Assembly: GCA_000004985.1 (NCBI GenBank)
Contig: GG738861.1
Reading direction: 5' to 3' (one strand)
Length of the DNA: 64,000 bases
Origin: Naegleria gruberi
Taxonomy: Eukaryota
Part shown: positions 1-37,504 of the stretch, in pieces
How the letters are laid out: each line of letters starts with the position of its first letter
How positions within the stretch are numbered: the first letter of the stretch is position 1
Notes under the pieces: model-generated
Databases searched by the model: none
The model's input: the letters and a program-made list of their open reading frames with translations, nothing else
Told to the model about the DNA's origin: nothing
Made by a program: the position numbers and the translations under genes

Positions 1-744
1 GTGGCCGAAGAATTATTGAGGCAACACCATATTTCATCCAACAAACGACAACTACAGTACGGCTCAAACAACAATTATTGGCTGGAAAGAAAGCACCCCT
101 CAAGATTTAAATGAATTTCAAAGCCGAAAAGATGAAAAAAAAAATATTCAACAAATAATCCGTTGTGACTTGCTGATTTTCAGAGTGATTTCACATCATG
201 AAAGCACCAAACTTTCACATCAGCATCTCAACATCATCCGAATAGTAATAACAATCATTGTTTTTTATTAGTGGATTATTATCAGCAAATAGGAATTTAT
301 TTTTAAAGTTGGAAAAATACCAGTTGGTGAACCATCATATGAGCACTCACCAACCATCATCATTATTGTTTTCCATCAATATAATAATAGTATTTGTGGA
401 AATTAATTTTTAGTAATGTAATTTTGGTTGAAGAGCCAAAATTTTCACTAAATCCATCATCACTGCTGAATCTACTGAACAAGTTGGAAAACTGTGAATG
501 TAGTATTGTTCGGAATTGTCAATAGGAGGCAGGAGAACTTTCTCTGATTCTACTACTATTTAAAATAGATAATAAACATCATATTTATTATCAGATTTTC
601 ATCATGTTCTATTGCCCTATCATCATTGCAATAATATAATTAATGAAAGACTTCCAATACGGCCCAAACCATTTGCACCACCCAAACAATCAAGTTTGCG
701 ATTGAAAGATTTTCAAGTTTGCGATTGACTCTTCAACACATAAA

Positions 745-5513: not shown

Positions 5514-6180
5514 ACTCTTTCTACTGGGAAGTGTGTACAGTGGCAAAACCTCAATTATTAAGAGATTTGTTTATAATCAGTTCACACAAGGTTATGAATC
5601 ACCTTCCTGTTTTTATGAAGAATTCAAACAAACAATTTCTATAGATCAAAGAGAAGAATCCATACTCTTAATAGATTCATTTGGGATCCTTAGTCGTTTC
5701 CTTCCATTTGAAGAACGTTATTATTGTAAAAAGATTAATTTCAATGTTTTGGTAATTGTTTGCTCAATGACGGAATATGAAAGTTTGCATGATTTGAAAC
5801 AAATATTGAGGAGATTTGTGGATGATAAGGGATTGAATGCTCCTTGTGTTGTGGCCATTAATAAGTGTGATCTTTTTCATCATTGTGTGGTTGATATAAG
5901 GGAGGTTAATGAAATTGTGGAAAATTTTGGATTGACTGATTATAAAATTATGGAGACGAGTGCAAAAACAGGAAAGAATATTGAAGAATTAGTGGAAGAA
6001 TGTGTTAGAAAGTTTAGAGAACGATTGAGAGATGTAAAAAGTGTTGTAGAACAAGTTCTGTTATTGGATCAAGAGGAGAAAGATGACAGAATGAGTATTT
6101 ACAAGATGGTGTTTATACCTCTTTGCTTTCTTTGGAATTTGATACTAAACTCGATTTTTCTCTGGAAGCTTAATGAATAG
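5473..6180 (+). CDS. divergent Ras-superfamily small GTPase
   Basis: G1 KLFLLGSVYSGKTS, G3 LLIDSFG (DxxG), G4 NKCD, G5 ETSAK. The frame is open from 5473 with no ATG before the listed GTG start at 5533, so the true 5' end is probably supplied by splicing. Ends TAG at 6180. Confidence 0.65.
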   Translation, partial: FEQEKNKSDSSEIKLFLLGSVYSGKTSIIKRFVYNQFTQGYESPSCFYEEFKQTISIDQREESILLIDSFGILSRFLPFEERYYCKKINFNVLVIVCSMTEYESLHDLKQILRRFVDDKGLNAPCVVAINKCDLFHHCVVDIREVNEIVENFGLTDYKIMETSAKTGKNIEELVEECVRKFRERLRDVKSVVEQVLLLDQEEKDDRMSIYKMVFIPLCFLWNLILNSIFLWKLNE

Positions 6181-6637
6181 AATCTCACCGACACGGAATT
6201 CACTAGACAAGTTTTCATTATTTTATGAAACAGAAAGGATAACCTTCTTAATGTTTCAAAAGATGCTAATCAAATAATTGGAAATGTTATAATCTATCAA
6301 CATTTCATTCTGTGGATCATCTTCTGAAATTCTGAATTGAATAGCAATGGAGCTTTGTTTAAAAGATAACTTGATAAGATTTGTTAATTAATTATAATTT
6401 ACAATTTTTCATGACTAACGTAATTCTCAACAATAACATACCAATTTGAAATTTGGTAAAACTGCAAATAGAATATTTTATTGGAAAGAAAAATAAAGGA
6501 GTCTAACCTTTGACTATTTTCTCGATGGAATTAGGAGATAAGGTTTTGAAAATTGGCAGATATGTTGATTACATACCAGTCTTCATATTATGAAAAAAAT
6601 TTTAAATTAAATAGTGAAGATAAAGTTAAAAATTAAT

Positions 6638-7092
6638 CTCGAGTGCCGGGAATTGAATTTCCTAATTTGGAAGATGACTTCAACAACCAAATAACAATAA
6701 TAAATTGGGTTATTAAATTAATGTTTATTAAATAGTGACCGTTAGGTCACTGATTGTTAATTAATTATTGATGATGATTTGTTGTTGAACAGATACTAAC
6801 CACCACCGATTGTTGTCATAATATTAAACACAGAGTAATCACCGTGTCGCCAAATTCCTTGATAATTATTCATAACTGTAACTTCTTGATCAAAAGGCAC
6901 TCGAGCAATAAACAATTTGATTTCACACAGCCAAAACTCTCGTTCATACTTTGGGTACCGGGAATGAAATTTCCAAATAAGGAATGACCGATATCATTCA
7001 ACTATTACTAACTCATACTCACACTAACAAAACAAATTGAACCCGGGTCGCCAGAGTGACAGTCTGGAATGCTACCACTATACCACACCCGA
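6638..7092 (-). pseudogene. tRNA-Asp(GUC) gene interrupted in the T-loop: 5' part 7092..7035 (nt 1-60), 3' part 6650..6638 (T-stem CCCGG + acceptor CACTCGA + discriminator G)
   Basis: Reverse complement of 7035..7092 is TCGGGTG TG GTAT AGTGGTA GCAT T CCAGA CTGTCAC TCTGG CGAC CCGGG TTCAATT (anticodon GTC). Reverse complement of 6638..6657 is TTCAATT CCCGG CACTCGA G. The acceptor halves pair 7/7 with one G·U, and the T-stem halves pair 5/5. The two parts are 377 bp apart. Confidence 0.75.
6658..7034. mobile_element. 377-bp non-coding insertion in the tRNA-Asp T-loop, flanked by 7-bp direct repeats AATTGAA (6651..6657 and 7035..7041)
   Basis: Left end TTTCCTAATTTGGAAG and right end ...CAACTATTACTAACTCATACTCACACTAACAAAACAA. 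Both ends are homologous to the ends of the 1,333-bp insertion at 23272..24604. It contains an internal second copy of the junction motif at 6951..6985. Confidence 0.55.
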
Positions 7093-8159
7093 TTTCATAT
7101 TAAGTGATAAATATTATTGAATATATAGACGTATTTTCAACAATTTTAAATAATTCTACCAACACCAATCCTGTGGTGAGATCCAGTTTCAAACCCTTTT
7201 AAAGGCATCCATTGCCCATCAGTAATTATAAACGAGTTGATCTCACAATAGTTCCTCGGACAATATTCCAATTTCCTTCAACACGTATTCTTCTTCCAAT
7301 CTCTCAAGCCTTTCCATAAATTGCAATACAATAATGATTCAGAAGTATGAATAAATTCAATAGTATCACATTTACATATAGTACATTTAGAACATGATCA
7401 GCACAGCCATTAGTTTCCCAAATTCCACTCTCTGAAAATCTTAAAGATTCAGTACTATCAGTCTCGTGTAGAAATTAACAAGAATACTGTGATAATTCAT
7501 TCACTCACAGAATTCAATTCAGTAGGTGAAAAGACAGGAAAGTTAATTTGATCTACCTTAAAATTGGTTTCCATCTTTGTCTAGAATATCACCTTAATTC
7601 ATTGAACAAGGGAATTTTCTAGAATATACATGTTAACTTTGCAAGAGCTTATTTCAAAAGATCAACTCTTGACACAAGTGGAAAATTAATCAACTCAAAT
7701 TAACAATGCTGTTCAATCACTGATGTCAAATATTAAAGGGTTCATCCCTATCCCCAATTACTATTCTCTTAAAATCACATAACTTTATCCAAAATGATTT
7801 CCAGTGTTTTCCCTTCTTCATTCCAGAATTAACTGAAGAAATATCATCCACTCAACTAATCATCTCAATAATACATGTGTTTATCTCAAATTATAATGTA
7901 AATATATCCACAGCACACAATGTTGCAACTTGAATTGATTGGAAGAGTAGAGTCACTTTGGGATGATTAAATTTGTTGTAGCCTCTCCACTAAATGTTAA
8001 ACCAACAACAACAATAATACCATCCAATGATAATCAACAATTGACGGCCCTCCAACTAGAAAGGGACAAGAAATAACGATGTGATATTACTATCAATATG
8101 TATGTGGTGGGAATTGTGTGAGCAGATGCAAGAATATTGTAGATGAAGGTTTTCTATTT

Positions 8160-9710
8160 TTTATCAAACTTGATGAATTTTTTCCATGTTGAAAATTACA
8201 GTAAGTTGTTAATTGCAATGTTTGCTGATTGTTTGCTCGTAATGTTTGATGATGTGTTGAATGAAAATAATGAAAAGTCATATTGTAAAGTTGTTCTTCT
8301 TCACTTGACTTTCCACATTTAAAAAATGACCTCTAAAATAGTTTTTTAAACTTCAATTTGACTTGCCATCAATCACATCAATCATTCTATCATTAATTTT
8401 TCATTTAAATATTTTTTTAACACACAAATCATCAATTAAAAATCAAAAAAAAACAAATCCATTCAAATTCTATAAAAATGTCATTCTGTGAAGACGTTCA
8501 AGCCCTCGTTGTCGATAACGGTTCTGGTATGTGTAAAGCTGGTTTTGCTGGTGATGATGCTCCAAGAGCTGTCTTCCCTTCAATTATTGGTAGACCAAAG
8601 CAAAAGTCCATTATGGTTGGTATGGGTAATAAGGATGCCTATGTTGGTGATGAAGCTCAATCCAAGAGAGGTATTTTAACTTTGAAGTATCCAATTGAAC
8701 ACGGTATTGTTACCAATTGGGATGATATGGAAAAGATCTGGCATCACACTTTCTACAATGAATTGAGAGTTGCTCCAGAAGAACATCCAGTCTTGTTGAC
8801 TGAAGCTCCTTTGAATCCAAAGGCCAATAGAGAAAAGATGACTCAAATTATGTTTGAAACTTTCTCAGTTCCAGCTATGTACGTCGCTATTCAAGCTGTC
8901 TTGTCCTTGTATGCTTCTGGTAGAACTACTGGTATTGTTTTGGACTCTGGTGATGGTGTTTCCCACACTGTTCCTATCTATGAAGGTTATGCTTTGCCAC
9001 ACGCCATCTTGAGATTGGATTTGGCTGGTCGTGATTTGACTGATTATTTGATGAAGATTTTGATGGAAAGAGGTTATTCATTCAATACTACTGCTGAAAG
9101 AGAAATTGTCAGAGATATTAAGGAAAAGCTCTGTTATATTGCTTTGGATTTCGAAGCTGAAATGAAGGTTGCTGCTGAATCATCATCAGTTGAAAAGTCA
9201 TACGAATTGCCAGATGGTAATGTTATCACTGTTGGTAACGAAAGATTCAGATGTCCAGAAGTCTTGTTCCAACCAAACTTCATTGGTATGGAAGCTGCTG
9301 GTGTTCATGAAACTACTTTCAACTCCATTGGTAAATGTGATATTGACATCAGAAAGGACTTGTACGGTAACGTTGTCTTGTCTGGTGGTACTACTATGTT
9401 CGAAGGTATTGCTGAAAGAATGACCAAGGAATTGACTGCTATGGCTCCTGCTTCAATGAAGATTAAGGTTGTTGCTCCACCTGAAAGAAAGTACTCTGTC
9501 TGGATTGGTGGTTCCATCTTGGCTTCATTGTCCACTTTCCAACAAATGTGGATCACAAAGGAAGAATATGAGGATGCCGGTCCAGGTATTGTTCACAGAA
9601 AGTGTTTCTAAATCTATTGATTTTGAAACAATTCAATTCTCCCAAACAAACAACAAAAACTTGTTTGTAATAAAACTATTATGTAAAATTAAAATCAATC
9701 TGAATACTTT
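8160..9710. repeat. arm B of the inverted actin duplication
   Basis: See arm A. The arms are separated by ~5.8 kb carrying 3073..6180 and the repeat-rich 6200..8100 region. Confidence 0.8.
8478..9611 (+). CDS. actin (copy B), protein identical to copy A
   Basis: Same 377-aa translation as 846..1979. Nucleotide sequence differs at a few synonymous sites (alternate-frame shadow ORFs 1034..1288 and 9169..9423 differ at 6 of 84 codons). Confidence 0.95.
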
Positions 9711-12403: not shown

Positions 12404-13781
12404 ATGGTCTCTAAATTATCATCAACAAGGAGTCTGTCGTCCTTTGCGATTGTACTCACCATTTTGTTCTCCATACTCGTATTGTGTAGTGCCGCAGATG
12501 AGAAGAAAACAGTTACCAGACAAACAAAAACCAACTCTGTCTATGAAACTCATGATGTTATCGATTTAGTGGTTGAAAAGTTGTGGTCTAAATACAACCC
12601 ATCAGAAACTTATAGTTATAAACAATTACCATTTTGCGATGCTAAAGGATCAACAGATACTTCATTGGGTGAAGAACTTACTGGTAGTGCTGATTCTGTC
12701 ATTTCAAATTATGATATTAGATTTGAAGGTTTGTTATTGCTTGTGTTAATTCAATCCCACTTACTATTAATTCTTTTCAACAATTTACTTTGATTGTATT
12801 ATTTTCTTTCTAATAATAATAATACCTAACAACAATAATACAATAATTAACATTAATAATGATAATGATAATAATAATTGATAATGTAAAATTCTAGTCG
12901 ATGTTCCTGCCGAGACTGAACTTTGCTCCAAGTCATTGAACAAGGAAGATTTGTCACTTTTACGTTCCTCAATCAAGGAAGATTATCTCATGCTCATGTA
13001 TTATGATGGTATTCCAATGATTGTTCACATTGGTTATTATGACACTGTTGAACACAAGTATTATCTTTACAATAGCTACAAATTCTCTTTGACTTACAAT
13101 GGTAATCATGTTATTACTGCTGTTGCTCAACCTTCTTCCAAGGTTGATATTTCTTCCGATGATGTTACTCTCATCAAGTTTAAATATTCAGCTGAATGGC
13201 AACAAACAGCCAAACAATACGTTACACGTGTTAATTACTTTATTGGTATGAACTTTAATAGTGATGAATTGGAAATCCAATGGTTCTCAATTATTAACAG
13301 CTTGATCTTTATCCTTGTTTTGACATCATTCTTGACATTTATCATTATTCGTATGCTCAGAAAGGATTATGATGCTATGGATTTGGTAATACACTATATT
13401 GAACTCCATTATTTGTATTTGAGTATGTGGGGTCAATATGGTCACGTTCCATTCCCAATTGTTTTGATGGTTGTCTTGATTTTGATTGCTGTCACTAGTT
13501 GCATTACCATTTCTCTCATTTATTTGACTCTCTCACAAGAAAACCACAATTGGTGGTGGAGAAGTATCAAGTTTGGTGGTACTAGCAGTATTTTCGTTTT
13601 TGGTTATTCCCTCTATTACTACATTATGGAAAGTGGCATGTCAGGCACTCTCCAAACAACCTTCTTTGTTGGTTACAACTTGGTTATTGCCTTTGCTGTT
13701 TTCTTAATGATGAGTACTGTTGGTTTCCTCTCTAGTTTGACCTTTGTCAAGAATATTTATAGTTCTATTAAGTGTGAATAA
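12404..13781 (+). CDS. TM9SF/nonaspanin-like membrane protein; 2 exons (12404..12728, 12898..13781)
   Basis: Signal peptide MVSKLSS...LVLCSAADE. Signatures YKQLPFC...SLGEELTG, YYDGIPMIVHIGYYD and C-terminal multi-TM region ending FVKNIYSSIKCE. Intron GTTTGT...TCTAG of 169 nt. Shorter than typical TM9SF, so further introns may be unresolved. Confidence 0.55.
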
Positions 13782-22782: not shown

Positions 22783-23271
22783 TTTATTGTCAATTTAACT
22801 CCAACATGTCCATATTCGCAATTCAAAATTCAAATGAGGTGAATGTGAGCCAAATTGGGGTAACAATTAATATTCATCTTTTTTGATCATTACTTAACTA
22901 TATTTGTACATAATAACCTGGGTTTAGAACTATGAGAATTGCGGAAGAGGTCCTCTTCATTGCTTGTACGATTATGTACAGTAATTGAGTTTGGGTACTG
23001 TCTTGTCCTTAATTAATTGATAAATTTTGCAAACAAATAAAATCGAATTCCAATTCTATTCTGGGTAGCCAAACTCACGCTGCATTACCCCAACTCTAAT
23101 ACTAATTGGTTTAAAAAAAATTAAAAATGACCCATTCTCAAAAAGAATTGGGATTAGAGGTAGTAATATTTGGATGGAAGATAGTAATTAATGTCTGGTT
23201 TTAGTGATAATCAAACAAAATGTAAAAGGAGGCTAAGAAAAGTAACTGGTTTGCGTCGACCGGGAATTGAA

Positions 23272-24604
23272 ATTTCCTTTTTTGGAATTCATTTAACTTT
23301 TAATTTTATGATGAAATTATGAATTATTTATTTTAATATTATTCATGATGTGAAACATCATGTTGAATTCTGTTCATTATTTTTAATTCATGATGTGAAA
23401 CATCATGTTGAATTATTAACAAATGTTGTTCTTCAATTTTTCATTGAATGTTGTTCTTTCAATGAATGTTGGAATAAGTGTCCAGTATATGATAGAATTG
23501 TTAATACAAGTAAGTTTTCTATTATTTTATATTTATTAATTGACTCACGGGTAATGGAATTTCCTTTTTTGTAAATCATCATGATTGATGATGATTGATG
23601 ATGATTAAATAATAATAATTTATTATTTTATAGATGATGGTACAATTAGATTTGTTAGTACATATCCTAATTGTATTTTAAAGAAAGAAAATTCACCAAC
23701 TAAAATTGAAGATATTATTCGTGAATATGAAGATGTAAAAGTTGTTTTAAATGAATTAGGTAAATCAACAACAAAAATTTATTCATCAGATACAACAAAA
23801 CATATGAATTTCCTAAAAGTTTTATTTATTTATGTAATGGTAATATTAAATATGATCAATCATTAAATATATCACAAGGAATTTATACAATTAAAATTCA
23901 AGATGATGAACATGATCACAAATATTATTATTTATTCGGAAGAGGTTTATTATTTCTATCAATTACATTACAAATGATTCCAACATTTAGTTTAAACAAG
24001 TATTATTATGAAATTGTATTGAATGATTTAAGTAACACATATTTTGATAAGAATGAAATTATTCAATATAAAATTGAAATTTTGCCATCAAATATTATTC
24101 AACAATATTCTAAACGAAAGTTTCTTGTTAGAAAAGATAGTCAAAAGAACTCAAGATTTATTACATATCAACCTGACGCTCAATCACCATCAAAGAAAAC
24201 AAAGAAGAATAACATTATTGAAAGTGATATTGAAGATTTCGATTGCAATATTAAAGATATTGATGATTGGGTATAGGGAAACGGAATTTCCTAATTGGGA
24301 ATGTCATCACACAATAAATTAAATTTATTATTTATTCATTGATGTTCACAAACTGTGAATTAACACATTACATGATGAAACAATTCAAACATTTACTCAA
24401 ACTTTAAACATTAACCATCGGGTAACGGATTTTAATACATGTACTAGTATGTTTATTAATTGGTCGACGCACATAAATTTAAATAAACAAAATTAACAAG
24501 ATTTTAAACAAAATCCTACATAGAGTTGGAGAACGGGAAATGAAATTCCCAAATTGAAATTGAGAAACAACTATTCATTTCACAATAATTCATACTATCA
24601 AAAT
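23272..24604. mobile_element. 1,333-bp insertion in the tRNA-Gly T-loop, flanked by 7-bp direct repeats AATTGAA (23265..23271 and 24605..24611); carries ORFs
   Basis: Left end ATTTCCTTTTTTGGAATTC and right end ...CAACTATTCATTTCACAATAATTCATACTATCAAAATG are homologous to the ends of the 377-bp insertion at 6658..7034. It contains internal junction-motif copies at 23541..23575, 24272..24300 and 24528..24560, and a 45-bp tandem duplication at 23341..23414. Confidence 0.55.
23608..24279 (+). CDS. insertion-internal ORFs (frame 23608..23848 overlapping frame 23764..24279), hypothetical protein with AT3-biased codons
   Basis: Two overlapping open frames (~80 and ~171 codons) that could be joined by one short intron or a frameshift. 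Leu is almost all TTA and Lys AAA, unlike host genes (TTG/AAG). There is a possible 3' splice site TTATTTTATAG at 23622..23633. No transposase or integrase motif is recognisable. Confidence 0.3.
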
Positions 24605-24969
24605 GAATTGAACCCGGGTCACGGCGATGGCAACGCCGTATTCTACCACTAAACCATCGACGCTTCTTGTTAAGATATTAAGGTTCCTTAATTTAATATA
24701 AGGAATATCCAAAATGCTTAAAGTACAACACAACAAGAATTGAGTATTCGTTTGAACATGCTGTAAAATATTTCAAATTATGCTAAGATCATTTGATGTA
24801 TTTAATGCCATAGGGCATTGAGAGCCATCATTTGAAGATTCAAATAGTATGTTCTTGATTTTATCTGATAAAGCACAAGAATAACATTTCATCCACTAAA
24901 TTTTATAAATGTTGACTGTGTTACATAATAGTATTTAATTATTATTGAAATGAGGATAACAATAAATTA

Positions 24970-26682
24970 TTAGAAACCATCTCTCATTACATAATACTTT
25001 GAAGATGAAGAGTCCATCATGGCAATTGAAGGATTATTAATATGAGCTGCCTGTCTCTTCATTCTCCACTTTGAAACAAGTACAAAAACAATGGTAATGA
25101 CAGCTGCCAACAATAAACCACCAAACACAACTCCAATTGACACATAAAGCCATGTGAAATCTCTTTTTTCAGAGATTATATTTCCATCATTACTACTTGG
25201 ACTTCCAATAGTTGGATTACTGTAAGAGGGAGAAATAGGCATCATGAAAGCTGACACGTCAATATAATTAATGGCATTCTGATTTGCAAATAATTGAAAG
25301 TATGCTGTACGAGCCAATGTTTCATTATTGGAAATTGTAATACTTTTCATAGTTTTTGAAATTTCTACAACATTCTCATAATTTTGACTATTTGGAGTTT
25401 CAGATTTGAATGATTGATAGATTGTAAAGGTGGATGCATCCTTTCCAAATATTCTTGGAATTTTCAAAATAACTTGTTGACCAGCAGGTAAGGAAATTTG
25501 ATATAAATGTGAAATTCCATTAGAAATTGGTTCCAAATAGAGTTTTGAATTGTTTCTCAATGTAACTCCATGGGCAGTGTCCTCTCTCTCGTGATGTGGA
25601 GGTGGTGGAGTATTGTCAATGACACCACAAATTGTGACAAGTCTGCCAGAAATCACACTACTTGTCAGTTCACAAGTTTGTTCATTACAAACTAATTTTT
25701 GATCAGGTATCCAATAATCATTGACCCAAGTTGCAATACTCAAGGTATCTTCTTTGATATTAAATGACTTTCCATTTGTGGCATTGTAAAATGTGAAATT
25801 TGAATTGAAAGAAAAGACAACATTAAAAAAGCTTGGATCTGATGTGTTGGTTTTTGTTGAAAATAAATAGAGTGGTACATAATCATCATAATCCAACTTA
25901 ATTTTTGAATATTCCCCTTGCCTATTTTGTAAATTAACCGAATATGGAAAGTTAAAAATATCTTTAAATTCCATTTTTAGATTTTCATCCATTGGCGAAT
26001 ATTGTTGACGAAAATTCAAACTTCTCTTAAACTCAATCGTGTAAGGAACATCAAAATCAGCTCTAACATTCTCAAATGTCTTTCCCACCAATCCAAACAT
26101 GAGTGTCTTATTATTTCCAATATAATCTCTTTCCAAATTTAGAACAGTAAATGTAAATTCATTTCCTTTTTGAGAAAGAGCTTTAACTGGCACCACCGTT
26201 TGACTATCCTTAAATACGACACATCTATAACTTTTTGGATCCGTGTCCATCACATCCGTTCCTACAATTGCCATTGTAATATCAAGTGTTGGAATAGTTG
26301 CCATTTCTGGTATAAAACTTTTCGATAAATCCAATTGAAAAACATTGTAAATATTCATGGTATCATATGGTAGAAAGGGTAAATTTGAAACAACTCGTGG
26401 GAAGGAATTTGACACCAACTCGAGATTGTTAATTTTTGCCATTCCGCTCATGTTTGTAAATTTCACAATCATACTCGAGTCAACGCCAATTCCTGTTAAT
26501 GTAAATGAAGTAAATGATGTTTTTCTGATGGTAAAATATTCATCGAATGAGAAACCACAAACGGCGGACGCGAGAAGTGTCAAAATGAGAAGGTGTTTGA
26601 GTAGTGACATTTTTTTAAATAACATTAAAAGGGGTTTCATAAAATCTTTGTAAAGCCAATAAGAAGGTTTAATTGGCAACAA
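24970..26682 (-). CDS. hypothetical type I membrane glycoprotein (signal peptide, large ectodomain, one C-terminal TM, short basic tail)
   Basis: Probable start MSLLKHLLILTLLASAVCG at ~26610. The C-terminal TM is GLLLAAVITIVFVLV followed by SKWRMKRQ. Ectodomain has many N-x-S/T sites. Confidence 0.5.
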   Translation of the reverse strand: MLPIKPSYWLYKDFMKPLLMLFKKMSLLKHLLILTLLASAVCGFSFDEYFTIRKTSFTSFTLTGIGVDSSMIVKFTNMSGMAKINNLELVSNSFPRVVSNLPFLPYDTMNIYNVFQLDLSKSFIPEMATIPTLDITMAIVGTDVMDTDPKSYRCVVFKDSQTVVPVKALSQKGNEFTFTVLNLERDYIGNNKTLMFGLVGKTFENVRADFDVPYTIEFKRSLNFRQQYSPMDENLKMEFKDIFNFPYSVNLQNRQGEYSKIKLDYDDYVPLYLFSTKTNTSDPSFFNVVFSFNSNFTFYNATNGKSFNIKEDTLSIATWVNDYWIPDQKLVCNEQTCELTSSVISGRLVTICGVIDNTPPPPHHEREDTAHGVTLRNNSKLYLEPISNGISHLYQISLPAGQQVILKIPRIFGKDASTFTIYQSFKSETPNSQNYENVVEISKTMKSITISNNETLARTAYFQLFANQNAINYIDVSAFMMPISPSYSNPTIGSPSSNDGNIISEKRDFTWLYVSIGVVFGGLLLAAVITIVFVLVSKWRMKRQAAHINNPSIAMMDSSSSKYYVMRDGF

Positions 26683-32165: not shown

Positions 32166-32238
32166 CGCCCACCGTGGGGGTCGAACCCACGACCACAAGG
32201 TTAAGAGCCTTGCGCTCTACCGACTGAGCTAGACGGGC
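32166..32238 (-). tRNA. tRNA-Lys(CUU), 73 nt, intact
   Basis: Reverse complement is GCCCGTC TA GCTC AGTCGGT AGAGC G CAAGG CTCTTAA CCTTG TGGTC GTGGG TTCGACC CCCAC GGTGGGC G. Cloverleaf with anticodon CTT and conserved GTTCGA T-loop. Confidence 0.9.
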
Positions 32239-32394: not shown

Positions 32395-34355
32395 ATGAAC
32401 AAACGACATCTAGCTGTAGAAATTCTAAACGATCAGTTCGGAGACATTATTGGCAAGGTTGGTTCTGTTCTTTTAGAACAAGGACCTCAGACCATGACGG
32501 ATTTGATTCAAAATACATCATTGCAATTTCCTCAAGTCAGAAATGCTCTCCTTGTTTTAATTCAACACAACATGTGTGTCTATTTTGACAAGAATATATA
32601 TCAACAAAAATTAGAACATGGATCAAAGAATGCGGAAGAGGAAGATGACATGAAAACACAAACAGAAAAATTGAGAGAACAAGAGGAAAGGAGAGAAAAG
32701 TGGAAGCATAAAGGTGGAGGTAATGATACAGCACCAGTCACTGTACCTATTGAGGAAGAAGAATCGGAACAAATTAAAGCAGAAAAACAAAAACAATTCG
32801 AAAGACAAAGCAAAATTATTTATTATCAAGTAATCATTGAAAATATTATTATGAGGTTGAAGAGTGCCAAGTTATTATATACCATTAGGACAAGTTATGG
32901 TATTGATGCAGAAGAATTGTTGCACATTCTCTTACAACACGGCAGATTGACAATGAAGGAATTAATTCAAAAAGCTTTGGAAAATATTACACAAACAGGT
33001 AGGTTTTACCCAAATATTTTGAGTGTATTGAATACTGTTATTGTTTATTTAATCTATTATTATTGTTAATTAATATTACTTTTAAACTCGGAATAACCCA
33101 CTCTCAATTTTATTAATTTTTATTATTATTATATTATTATTATCATAATAATAATATTTAAAAAGATTATACATTTGCCACTGAAAGTAAAAAGACATCC
33201 TTCATCACTGCCTTCCAAAAGATGGTCAAGGACAGATTTATCAAGAGAGTTCAGCCATATGTTTCATCCATTCAACTTCAAGAACAAAAGAAAAATGCAA
33301 AGGAAGGAGGATCAAACTCTACAACAGATTTACTTCAAAAGTACTCCAAACAAAACAAGGAATCTAAAAAGAAATCGGACAAGTCAAAGAAGAGAAAGAC
33401 AATTGAAGATGAAGATGGCAGCTCTCAATATGAACCTGAAAAGAAAAAGAAGAAGGGAACAAGTTCAGAAATTTCACCACTCGAATTTGACACTGAAGAA
33501 TTTGATTCAATTGATGAAGATGAAATTCATATTGATGCTGAAAATATTTTGTGGACTACCAATTACTCACAATTTATCAGAACTTTCAGAAATGAATCCA
33601 TCATTAAATATGTTGAAACCAAGATGGGAGAACAATTTGCATCCATTGTTAAAGCTGCCTTTGATGAAACTGCACCATATCAAAGATCTAAGAATGATCC
33701 AATGTCAACACCACTCAAATTTGAAAAATTATATGATAGAATATCAGAAACTGAGGAAATTGGTAGAAAGGTATTGGAAAATAACTTGAGTTTCCTCTGT
33801 AATCCAGAATTGGATATTTTGAGAGCTATGGGTAAGGACACTTATTTCATTAATTTGAAAGGTGTTGCCGATAAACTCAAAAAGCAAGAAACTGAAGTCA
33901 TCATTTCACAAAAATACAGTGTGATTGGATGTAGATTATTCAGATTATTGCTTGAAAAGAAGTATTTGGAACAGACTCATATTGCCGAATGTGCACTTTT
34001 ACCACCTTGTGAAGCTAGAACTCTATTGATGAACATGTTGAGAGGCTCCATCCTTCATTTACAAGAAGTACCTAAGAGTAAGGATCGTAGCGCTCAACAA
34101 ACCTTCTTCCTGTGGAGTGTCAAGTTGGAACAAGTTTATGAAAAGATTATCGATGACATGTACAAATCTGTAAGAAATTTGAGAATTAGATTAAAGAAAG
34201 AACAACAACATATAATTGAATCAGGCATTCTCGAAAGCACCTATTTGAGTGAAGAACAAGAAGAACAAATCAGACGATTGAAAAACATTGAAGACAGATT
34301 AGAAGCCTCTCTCATCAAACTAGTTGACCTCATTACTTTATTCGAAGATTTTTAA
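32395..34355 (+). CDS. RNA polymerase III subunit RPC82/RPC3-like; 2 exons (32395..32998, 33166..34355)
   Basis: N-terminal winged-helix region FGDIIGKVGSVLLEQGPQTMTDLIQNTSL...VRNALLVLIQHNM and LLQHGRLTMKELIQKALENI resemble Rpc82. Intron GTAGGT...AAAAAG of 167 nt keeps the frame into 33166. Confidence 0.55.
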
Positions 34356-37233: not shown

Positions 37234-37504
37234 AAAAGATTGTAAATAAATATCGACTTTTTCAACTTTCCAATACTAAAACCCAACAGGTTGGCACCTT
37301 ATCAGTCAACTAGCCTCAGACAAACAAAGTGGAGAAAATCAAAAAGACAAAAGACTACAGCACCACAGGTTCCCAAGTTGTCTCCAACCTCAGTACTGAT
37401 GTGGCTCGACGATGCTTAACTTCTCAAATCGGACGGGATGAGGTGCATTCATCGTGATATGGCCGTAGCCATTCATAACCCTAAAACAATGAATGTAAAG
37501 AATA

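Follow-up and report, generated by a model that had tools for sequence, protein, structure and literature searches.

Related composite inserts interrupt a tRNA-Gly(GCC) and a tRNA-Asp(GTC) gene of Naegleria gruberi at the same T-loop position

Here we describe a tRNA-Gly(GCC) and a tRNA-Asp(GTC) gene, both interrupted at the identical position of the T-loop by inserts with homologous ends, in a 64-kb stretch of nuclear DNA from Naegleria gruberi NEG-M (contig GG738861.1; hereafter the window), which is gene-dense and has a G+C content of 34%. The inserts are composite, being built of modules that end in TTCC-N6-GGAAAT followed by a T-loop-like heptamer, CCCGG and an Asp-like acceptor strand, and this organisation is new, as are two segments in each insert that match the host tRNA and a third copy on an environmental contig. 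With about as much doubt as confidence, we favour the explanation that they belong, as non-autonomous members, to a single family of site-specific mobile DNA which enters tRNA T-loops, works like the Dada transposons and lands in tRNA genes sharing the T arm CCGGG-TTCAATT-CCCGG.

Results

The interrupted tRNA genes

The tRNA-Gly(GCC) gene lies on the minus strand. Its 5′ part (nt 1-60, GCGTCGA...GACCCGGGTTCAATT; 24663..24606) ends in the T-loop heptamer TTCAATT (24612..24606), and nt 54-73 (TTCAATTCCCGGTCGACGCA; 23271..23252) begin with a second copy of the heptamer (23271..23265), continue with nt 61-73 (CCCGGTCGACGCA) and are followed 10 nt downstream by a terminator of four Ts (T4). The two heptamers are separated by 1,334 bp. 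An earlier note on this DNA, made from the letters alone, had recognised the split gene; its position for the 5′ part (24662..24605) and its length for the insert (1,333 bp) were each off by one. Joining the parts with a single heptamer gives a 71-nt tRNA-Gly(GCC) in which, according to ARAGORN, all stems are perfect, including the anticodon and T stems and an acceptor stem with 7/7 pairs, the halves of which the note had called perfectly complementary.

The tRNA-Asp(GTC) gene, also on the minus strand, consists of a 5′ part (nt 1-60, ending in TTCAATT; 7092..7035), an insert of 377 bp (7034..6658), the right TTCAATT (6657..6651) and a 3′ part (CCCGGCACTCGAG; 6650..6638) that runs into a T5 terminator. 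Heptamer, insertion point and orientation are identical at the two loci, as the earlier note had stated: at both junctions of both genes the duplicated TTCAATT is the entire 7-nt T-loop, nt 54-60, and the two tRNAs have the target T arm CCGGG-TTCAATT-CCCGG in common. The junctions conform to two patterns, GGGTTCAATT-YRTTTTGWTAG and TTCC-N6-GGAAAT-(T)TCAATTCCCGG. Read on the plus strand, the insert ends next to the 3′ parts are TTTCCTAATTTGGAA and ATTTCCTTTTTTGGAA, and those next to the 5′ parts CAACTATT..CATACT..CAAAA. The target-site specificity that had been proposed from the two loci stands in so far as two tRNA species are hit at the identical T-loop position, on a basis of two loci and one contig that lacks flanks.

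Interrupted genes of this kind bear on tRNA gene counts, since one gene finder scored the broken Gly gene as complete: left to itself, ARAGORN calls a spurious “complete” 72-nt tRNA-Gly at 24593..24664 by using 13 insert bases, an interval with an Rfam tRNA score of 21 bits against a threshold of 29. Published N. gruberi counts may include such broken genes. With ∼924 tDNAs (tRNA genes) in this species (PMC2888827), the T-loop is a multicopy target.

On the sequences at hand, the best “empty site” comparator comes from the sister genus. A 22-kb locus of Willaertia magna (L021) has a 5S rRNA gene at 6350-6468 and two uninterrupted tRNA-Gly(GCC) genes at 7634-7704 and 13560-13631 that are nearly identical to the reconstructed N. 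gruberi gene, sharing its acceptor stem, D arm and T stem and having one T-loop each; the loops themselves differ (TTCTATT and TTCGATT). This region surrounds the orthologue of the window's beta-CASP gene. The contigs of other relatives (L002, L003 and L015) extend to no tRNA locus.

Architecture of the inserts

The Gly insert (23272..24605, minus strand; G+C 23% compared with 34% for the window) is a composite arranged as u0-A-[V1, V2, R]-B-[∼730 bp with an open reading frame (ORF)]-C-[U3]-D, and the Asp insert is arranged as u0-E-[V1, V2, R]-F. The 1,334-bp insert does not simply extend the 377-bp one, which the earlier note had taken for a non-autonomous derivative; it joins a ∼320-bp homologue of the Asp insert to ∼1 kb of other sequence with two further right-end modules. 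The Asp locus is colinear with Gly 24677..24251, and the Asp insert is homologous to the first ∼320 bp plus the end of the Gly insert. Homology of sub-regions was judged by shuffling tests. These upheld the homologous ends noticed earlier (61-66 bp on the left and 124-184 bp on the right, both p<0.002), and u0, the module M block (the T-loop-like plus 3′-half-like sequence) and arm R each reached p<0.002. The spacer was weaker (p = 0.02) and the 32-43 nt between V1 and V2 were without Gly-Asp homology; a resemblance by eye between this interval and u0 was rejected (p 0.2-0.9). When the ∼1 kb from B to D was compared with the Asp insert, the end module alone was significant (two alignments above every shuffle). 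No further copy of insert sequence or of the end module lies within the window. Scans of viral, metagenome and GTDB collections with the junction patterns returned only chance matches, which were GC-rich or tRNA-free.

Unit u0 of the Gly insert (24545..24605, minus strand; 61 bp) begins CATTTTGATAGTATGAATTATT..., ends TTTGGGAAT and is homologous to Asp 7034..6969 (p<0.002). In both inserts a T4 run starts in u0, 3 nt past the T-loop on the tRNA-sense strand. Module M spans ∼55 nt and reads ..GTCAT-TTCC-N6-GGAAAT, then a T-loop-like heptamer, CCCGG and a 7-mer. It occurs at four Gly sites (A-D) and two Asp sites (E and F), all in tRNA-sense orientation, with D and F being the genuine right junctions; a profile search of the 64 kb found these six sites only, all in the two loci, and none elsewhere at E<0.1. 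Site A (24515..24575, minus strand; GGGAAT-TTCATTT-CCCGT-TCTCCAA) mimics a right junction with an Asp-like acceptor strand and has a T4 run 14 nt on. Site B (24256..24316, minus strand; GGAAAT-TCCGTTT-CCCTA-TACCCAA) aligns with the genuine Asp right junction, site C (23529..23589, minus strand) reads GGAAAT-TCCATTA-CCCGT-GAGTCAA, and site E in the Asp insert (6999..6940, minus strand) reads GGAAAT-TTCATT-CCCGG-TACCCAA. The 7-mers of A, B, C and E (TCTCCAA, TACCCAA, GAGTCAA and TACCCAA), together with that of site C in the third copy described below (CCCGT-TACCTAA), form a family with the consensus TACCCAA, which needs two transitions to pair ideally with the Asp 5′ acceptor strand.

The right arm R of the Gly insert (24286..24409, minus strand; 124 bp, ending TTCC-CAATTA-GGAAAT) is homologous both to Asp 6841..6658 (p<0.002) and to the right part of U3 (p = 0.005). 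U3 itself (23272..23545, minus strand) ends TTCC-AAAAAA-GGAAAT and contains tandem hairpins CATGATGTGAAACATCATG, identical 19-nt repeats 45 bp apart (23344-23362 and 23389-23407), with a weak, sub-threshold Rfam match. In the Asp insert the corresponding parts are u0 at 7034..6969, V1 at 6905..6896, V2 at 6852..6842 and R at 6841..6658, all on the minus strand. Terminal inverted repeats (TIRs) are absent from both inserts, any match being 4 nt or shorter. Inverted repeats are subterminal: in the Gly insert 24612-24584 is 76% complementary to 23328-23300 across 29 nt, and in the Asp insert part of R, taken as its reverse complement, matches u0. The inserts end in ...GGAAAT and ...GGAAA, with no A-rich or simple-repeat tail. 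They contain target-like sequence (the M modules, V1 and V2), but the distances do not match. A 12-nt direct repeat, TCACTATTTAAT, is present in the Asp right arm (6727-6738) and again at 6606-6617, 20 nt downstream of the tRNA-Asp 3′ end; it is borderline, with ∼0.03 expected by chance.

Segments matching the host tRNA

Each insert holds two short segments, V1 and V2, that match the tRNA gene in which the insert sits. Gly V1 (TGCGTCGACC; 24471..24462, minus strand) is the exact reverse complement of tRNA-Gly nt 64-73 (GGTCGACGCA), at an offset of 134 counted from the left junction, and Asp V1 (CTCGAGTGCC; 6905..6896, minus strand) is the reverse complement of tRNA-Asp nt 64-73, at an offset of 129. 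These ten nucleotides of the tRNA comprise two T-stem bases, the acceptor 3′ strand and the discriminator. Each V1 has seven G/C bases in otherwise AT-rich DNA, and the chance of a second V1 lying within 10 nt of the same offset is ∼2.5e-6 as estimated from base composition. The complement of the 3′ strand (10/10) is a better fit than the 5′ strand itself, which V1 copies at 7/10 positions in Gly and 6/10 in Asp; Asp V1 has A where the 5′ strand has the G opposite U69. A primer-binding-site-like role for V1 was rejected, as ATG and TTG stand where the CCA complement TGG would be expected.

V2 sits 32-43 nt beyond V1 in both inserts. Gly V2 (CCGTTACCCGATGGTTAAT; 24410..24428, minus strand) is a sense copy of tRNA-Gly nt ∼40-59 (CCGTGACCCGGGTTCAAT) differing by one substitution and two indels, and consists of a core CCGTTACCCG followed by the T-loop-like GGTTAAT. 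Asp V2 (TGGCGACACGG; 6852..6842, minus strand) is a sense copy of tRNA-Asp nt 40-50, and both Asp V1 and Asp V2 stop 3 nt short of the T-loop. The pseudo-3′ halves at A, B, C and E have no complements within the inserts; the genuine 3′ halves alone have them. If V1 and V2 are ends of a carried-along tRNA 5′ half and about two tRNA species are eligible, they would match their hosts at both loci by chance about one time in four. The 10-mers, each matching its own locus at the same offset, are accounted for by no standard model.

A third copy on an environmental contig

The single protein relative of the insert ORF led to a 559-bp contig of an unrelated metagenome assembly in ENA (L014), which matches the Gly-type insert at 88-89% identity, starting with the spacer, running on through V1, V2, R and sites B and C and reaching into U3, and is without tRNA flanks. 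It differs by an inverted duplication of R and B directly after V1 and by the deletion of most of the ORF. Its V1 reads TGTGTCGACC, a single change of C to T that could still give a G-U pair. The copy shows that the composite is present in another Naegleria genome, evolves by large indels and can dispense with the ORF; neutral, protein-independent DNA is what such indels and ORF loss look like. Positions 67-355 (minus strand) of the contig form a ∼300-bp imperfect palindrome (69% across 307 nt) arising from the inverted duplication of R and site B.

Coding capacity and transcription

The Gly insert contains a degraded ORF of ∼218 codons (23621..24276, plus strand, opposite to the tRNA) broken by a single frameshift near 23780-23830. 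The final 100 codons (23974..24276, plus strand) are the annotated NAEGRDRAFT_66102 (XP_002678484, 100 aa), which lies entirely within the insert. The ORF has no family in Pfam or PHROGs at E≤10, where a GIY-YIG-like string (“GIY...YLFG”) likewise went unsupported, nothing meaningful being found. A HMMER scan of 1.8 billion representative proteins returned the protein itself, one 44-aa fragment and no paralogues. A word-indexed protein search with the frameshift-corrected ORF gave no match, which is a weak negative, as the same search missed the identical 100-aa N. gruberi protein. The AlphaFold model has no confident fold (predicted local distance difference test score 31). Being a frameshifted tail with one fragment as its relative, and deleted in L014, NAEGRDRAFT_66102 is probably not a real gene.

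Rfam holds no intron, ribozyme or other family that matches either insert, and folding gave nothing above shuffled sequence (z +0.5 to +1.3 for the V1-V2 region, z -1.7 for the entire Asp precursor). On the tRNA-sense strand the Gly insert has 14 runs of at least four Ts and the Asp insert three; the real tRNA genes in the window terminate at T4-T5. From the sequence, RNA polymerase III (Pol III) should stop after ∼64 nt, and because the T4 run 3 nt beyond the T-loop would end transcription there, the interrupted host genes are most likely inactive.

Genomic setting

The ORF adjoining the tRNA-Gly locus (24970..26682, minus strand) is 100% identical to NAEGRDRAFT_79278, and a second window ORF has 80% identity to an N. 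fowleri protein and 68% to a Willaertia protein. The window also contains three actin genes, one dispersed 5S rRNA gene (37352-37470, minus strand) and one intact tRNA-Lys(CTT) gene (32166-32238, minus strand), whose T arm GTGGG-TTCGACC-CCCAC is uninterrupted; besides Gly, Asp and Lys there is no other tRNA gene in the window. An ORF with the helix-turn-helix domain of the Pol III subunit RPC82 (32395-33069, plus strand) starts ∼160 bp from tRNA-Lys(CTT). A Ras-like ORF at 5533-6180 neighbours the tRNA-Asp locus. The tRNA-Asp locus is flanked on both sides by the arms of a 1.56-kb inverted duplication (747-2306 and 8164-9710, 96.5% identity), each holding a 377-aa actin gene; the third actin gene is at 33222-34355. 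Rfam matches to “mir-3533” at 1089-1172 and 9285-9368 fall within actin ORFs, far under threshold, and are apparent false positives.

Discussion

Several features support a mobile-DNA origin for the two inserts: a fixed site and orientation, a clean 7-bp repeat, shared ends, subterminal inverted repeats, internal target-like sequence, low G+C content, a multicopy target and the lack of coding capacity. We propose that an enzyme acting in trans and encoded elsewhere would make cuts at the edges of the T-loop, staggered by 7 bp between the two strands, and join the element in, a reaction that would resemble those of Dada and hAT-type DDE transposases. The enzyme would recognise the T-loop together with the 3′ T-stem, the sequence that the element repeats internally as module M. 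In the layout a single left end is combined with several right ends, and every right end leads into a T-loop-like heptamer and an Asp-like 3′ half; this could have arisen through repeated hits on one site with co-mobilisation of flanking tRNA pieces from earlier hosts. Alternative or one-ended transposition yields composite products of this sort for this class of enzyme. Since Asp-like 3′ halves are present within the Gly locus, element DNA would have moved from a tRNA-Asp to a tRNA-Gly gene and taken flanking tRNA sequence with it, the halves being the trace of that move. The economical reading of V1 and V2, and the weakest step of the proposal, is that they are the ends of a same-species tRNA 5′ half carried likewise between two element copies.

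A number of observations weigh against this proposal. Only two loci have flanks, mobility is deduced and not observed, and neither the inserts nor the rest of the 64-kb window yielded a transposase, integrase or reverse transcriptase. The right-end modules precede 3′-half-like sequence and not a new left end, contrary to simple nested insertion. V1 is the complement of nt 64-73 with the discriminator and G64-G65, not the 5′ acceptor strand, and lies at a shared offset in the two inserts; if a 5′ half had been carried along, neither this match to the 3′ strand and discriminator nor the shared offset would be well explained, nor would the disappearance of all similarity from the stretch between V1 and V2. 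The tRNA halves are undecayed, yet the third copy (12% divergence) suggests that the Gly-type composite is old. Finally, sequence alone does not distinguish the 7-bp repeat from a crossover core used by a site-specific recombinase: the reconstructed site is a 7-nt core between CCGGG and CCCGG, which is expected equally of a target-site duplication (TSD).

One alternative is an integrative element moved by a tyrosine-type site-specific recombinase, with the T-loop as crossover core, the T-stem strands as the core-binding arms of attB, the M modules (GGAAAT-TTCATTT-CCCGG-TACCCAA) as attP-like or fossil att sites, and the arrays produced by repeated integration. Prokaryotic integrases use just this geometry of a 7-nt loop and symmetric stem in tRNA T-loops, and here the repeat is exactly the 7-nt loop within a perfect 5-bp inverted repeat, with the identical core at both junctions; the M modules, a T-loop-like heptamer plus tRNA-like 3′ half, resemble the attP of tRNA-integrating elements, and the units are arranged head to tail. 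We nevertheless consider it unlikely, as no site-specific recombinase was found in the window and the left junction (CATTTTG in Gly, TGTTTTG in Asp) brings no element-borne 3′ half after the 5′ part, so that the gene is not restored. The 3′-half-like sequence comes 61-66 bp later, and the Gly one pairs at 3/7 positions only. The putative left arm of attP, GGAAAT, is moreover no inverted copy of the right arm, and subterminal inverted repeats suit a transposon better. An RNA-derived origin, in which a SINE-like (short interspersed nuclear element) retroelement is transcribed by Pol III from the element through the host T-loop, 3′ half and trailer to the terminator, and new copies made by target-primed reverse transcription carry the 3′ half of the preceding host together with ∼14 nt and T4, would explain why TTTT lies ∼14 nt past the pseudo-3′ end at sites A and E, resembling the real tRNA trailers here, and why the V1 border coincides with the mature tRNA end (nt 73). 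It is harder to square with the T4 run at the element start, which would halt Pol III, with sites B and C, which lack the T4 trailer, and with inserts that end in GGAAAT or GGAAA without the A-rich or simple-repeat tail, and in place of the variable TSD, of SINE and other non-LTR (long terminal repeat) elements show a duplication of exactly 7 bp, identical at both loci; no reverse transcriptase occurs in the window, and we judge this origin improbable.

We would put at much the same low level an explanation that requires no dedicated mobility, namely one ancient insertion spread by ectopic gene conversion or unequal crossing-over through the 15-nt and 12-nt T-arm identity of tRNA-Asp and tRNA-Gly, so that each locus would be a tandem pair of interrupted genes in decay (intact 5′ half and decayed 3′ half, spacer, decayed 5′ half and intact 3′ half). 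The order within the inserts of 3′-half-like sequence, T4 trailer, ∼30-40 nt spacer, acceptor-like 7-mer, ∼34-45 nt and a copy of nt 40-60 is what would be expected between two tandem genes, and the Gly spacing from acceptor to nt 40 is 34 nt compared with 32 nt in the real gene. Conversion would, however, bring the donor's V1 and V2, whereas those observed match the recipient; decay is not uniform, the outer halves being perfect and the inner ones unrecognisable except for V1 and V2; and the inner 3′ halves of the Gly locus are Asp-like. V1 and V2 also invite two readings based on pairing. They might be working guide-like segments, 10-11 nt each around a variable stem region, that match the two flanks of the element's own target, with the flanks recognised by nucleic-acid pairing on opposite strands and a protein reading the common 13-bp core GGG-TTCAATT-CCC; this would be a eukaryotic counterpart, directed at tRNA genes, of guide-programmed recombination or transposition. 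Alternatively, they might pair for the expression of a split tRNA. We regard this as a long shot. If the 10-mers always match the host tRNA, such matching would suggest target choice by pairing. The reading of the loci as functional split or intron-containing tRNA genes, with removal at the RNA level or joining in trans through pairing of V1 with the 3′ half, draws on both halves having no disabling change, on the 10-bp helix that V1 and nt 64-73 could form at both loci and that the C to T change of the third copy would preserve as a G-U pair, and on the interruption of both window genes with this T arm. It appears to us very improbable. The T4 run 3 nt in and the 14 and 3 runs of this kind would stop transcription where real genes end at T4-T5, no intron or ribozyme is recognised by Rfam, the folds are no better than shuffles, and the third copy has indels of hundreds of bp; the T-loop intron that the earlier note had raised as an alternative is improbable on the same grounds of terminators, Rfam and folding. 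A group I intron was rejected, the inserts having no terminal G and no Rfam match, and a search of the inserts for a bulge-helix-bulge motif, which was not exhaustive, found none.

Sequence-specific insertion of DNA into eukaryotic genes is rare, and if the inserts are site-specific mobile DNA as we favour, they point to a candidate enzyme with a natural recognition site of 17 bp. Among known systems, disrupted tRNA genes (the split genes of Nanoarchaeum and the permuted and multi-intron genes of Cyanidioschyzon) resemble the Naegleria loci in being broken in a loop, and the permuted genes also in the insert order of 3′-half-like sequence, spacer and 5′-half-like sequence; unlike in those genes, the inner halves in Naegleria are non-functional and the long, AT-rich inserts carry many Pol III terminators. 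The prokaryotic elements that integrate into T-loops share the repeat of a 7-nt loop within a symmetric stem, the 3′-half-like sequence and the fixed orientation, whereas in Naegleria the host is a eukaryotic nucleus, the window has no integrase and the gene is left unrestored at the left junction, with no replacement 3′ part. Composite insertions and macrotransposons formed by alternative transposition of hAT elements (Ac/Ds) likewise line up several element ends in direct order, separated by stretches of former flanking DNA, and show inverted duplications such as that of L014; the Naegleria inserts differ in lacking the 8-bp duplication, TIRs and a transposase.

The closest described system is Dada, by analogy; membership cannot be claimed. 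Dada elements generate TSDs of 6-7 bp at a fixed site in a multicopy small-RNA gene and have short subterminal inverted repeats without TIRs (PMC3706591); target-gene sequence recurs in the element, flanks are sometimes carried along, one-ended events occur and families are target-specific (PMC3706591; PMC8869645). The Naegleria inserts are alike in having a fixed site in Pol III genes (two flanked copies), a duplication within this size range (TTCAATT), subterminal repeats only, internal target-like sequence (if not at matching distances) and non-autonomous derivatives at the same site, and some fish Dada families hit both tRNA-Gly-GCC and tRNA-Asp-GTC (PMC8869645). The likeness to Dada that the earlier note had drawn holds for functional features (PMC3706591) and stops at two points. 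What defines a Dada element is that it encodes, or descends from a copy encoding, a DDE transposase with a DxxH motif and zinc fingers at both termini, and neither insert encodes a transposase, nor does the 64-kb window; the published tRNA sites of Dada are at nt 8-13 (the A-box region) and in the anticodon region, with none in the T-loop (PMC8869645). For these inserts the name Dada is accordingly an analogy rather than a placement. None of the papers searched connects Naegleria with tRNA-targeting elements or with Dada. The T-loop is not reported as a eukaryotic transposon target in the Dada literature examined and would be a new site, and compared with the published Dada tRNA sites a T-loop (B-box) family in a heterolobosean would represent both a new target and a new lineage.

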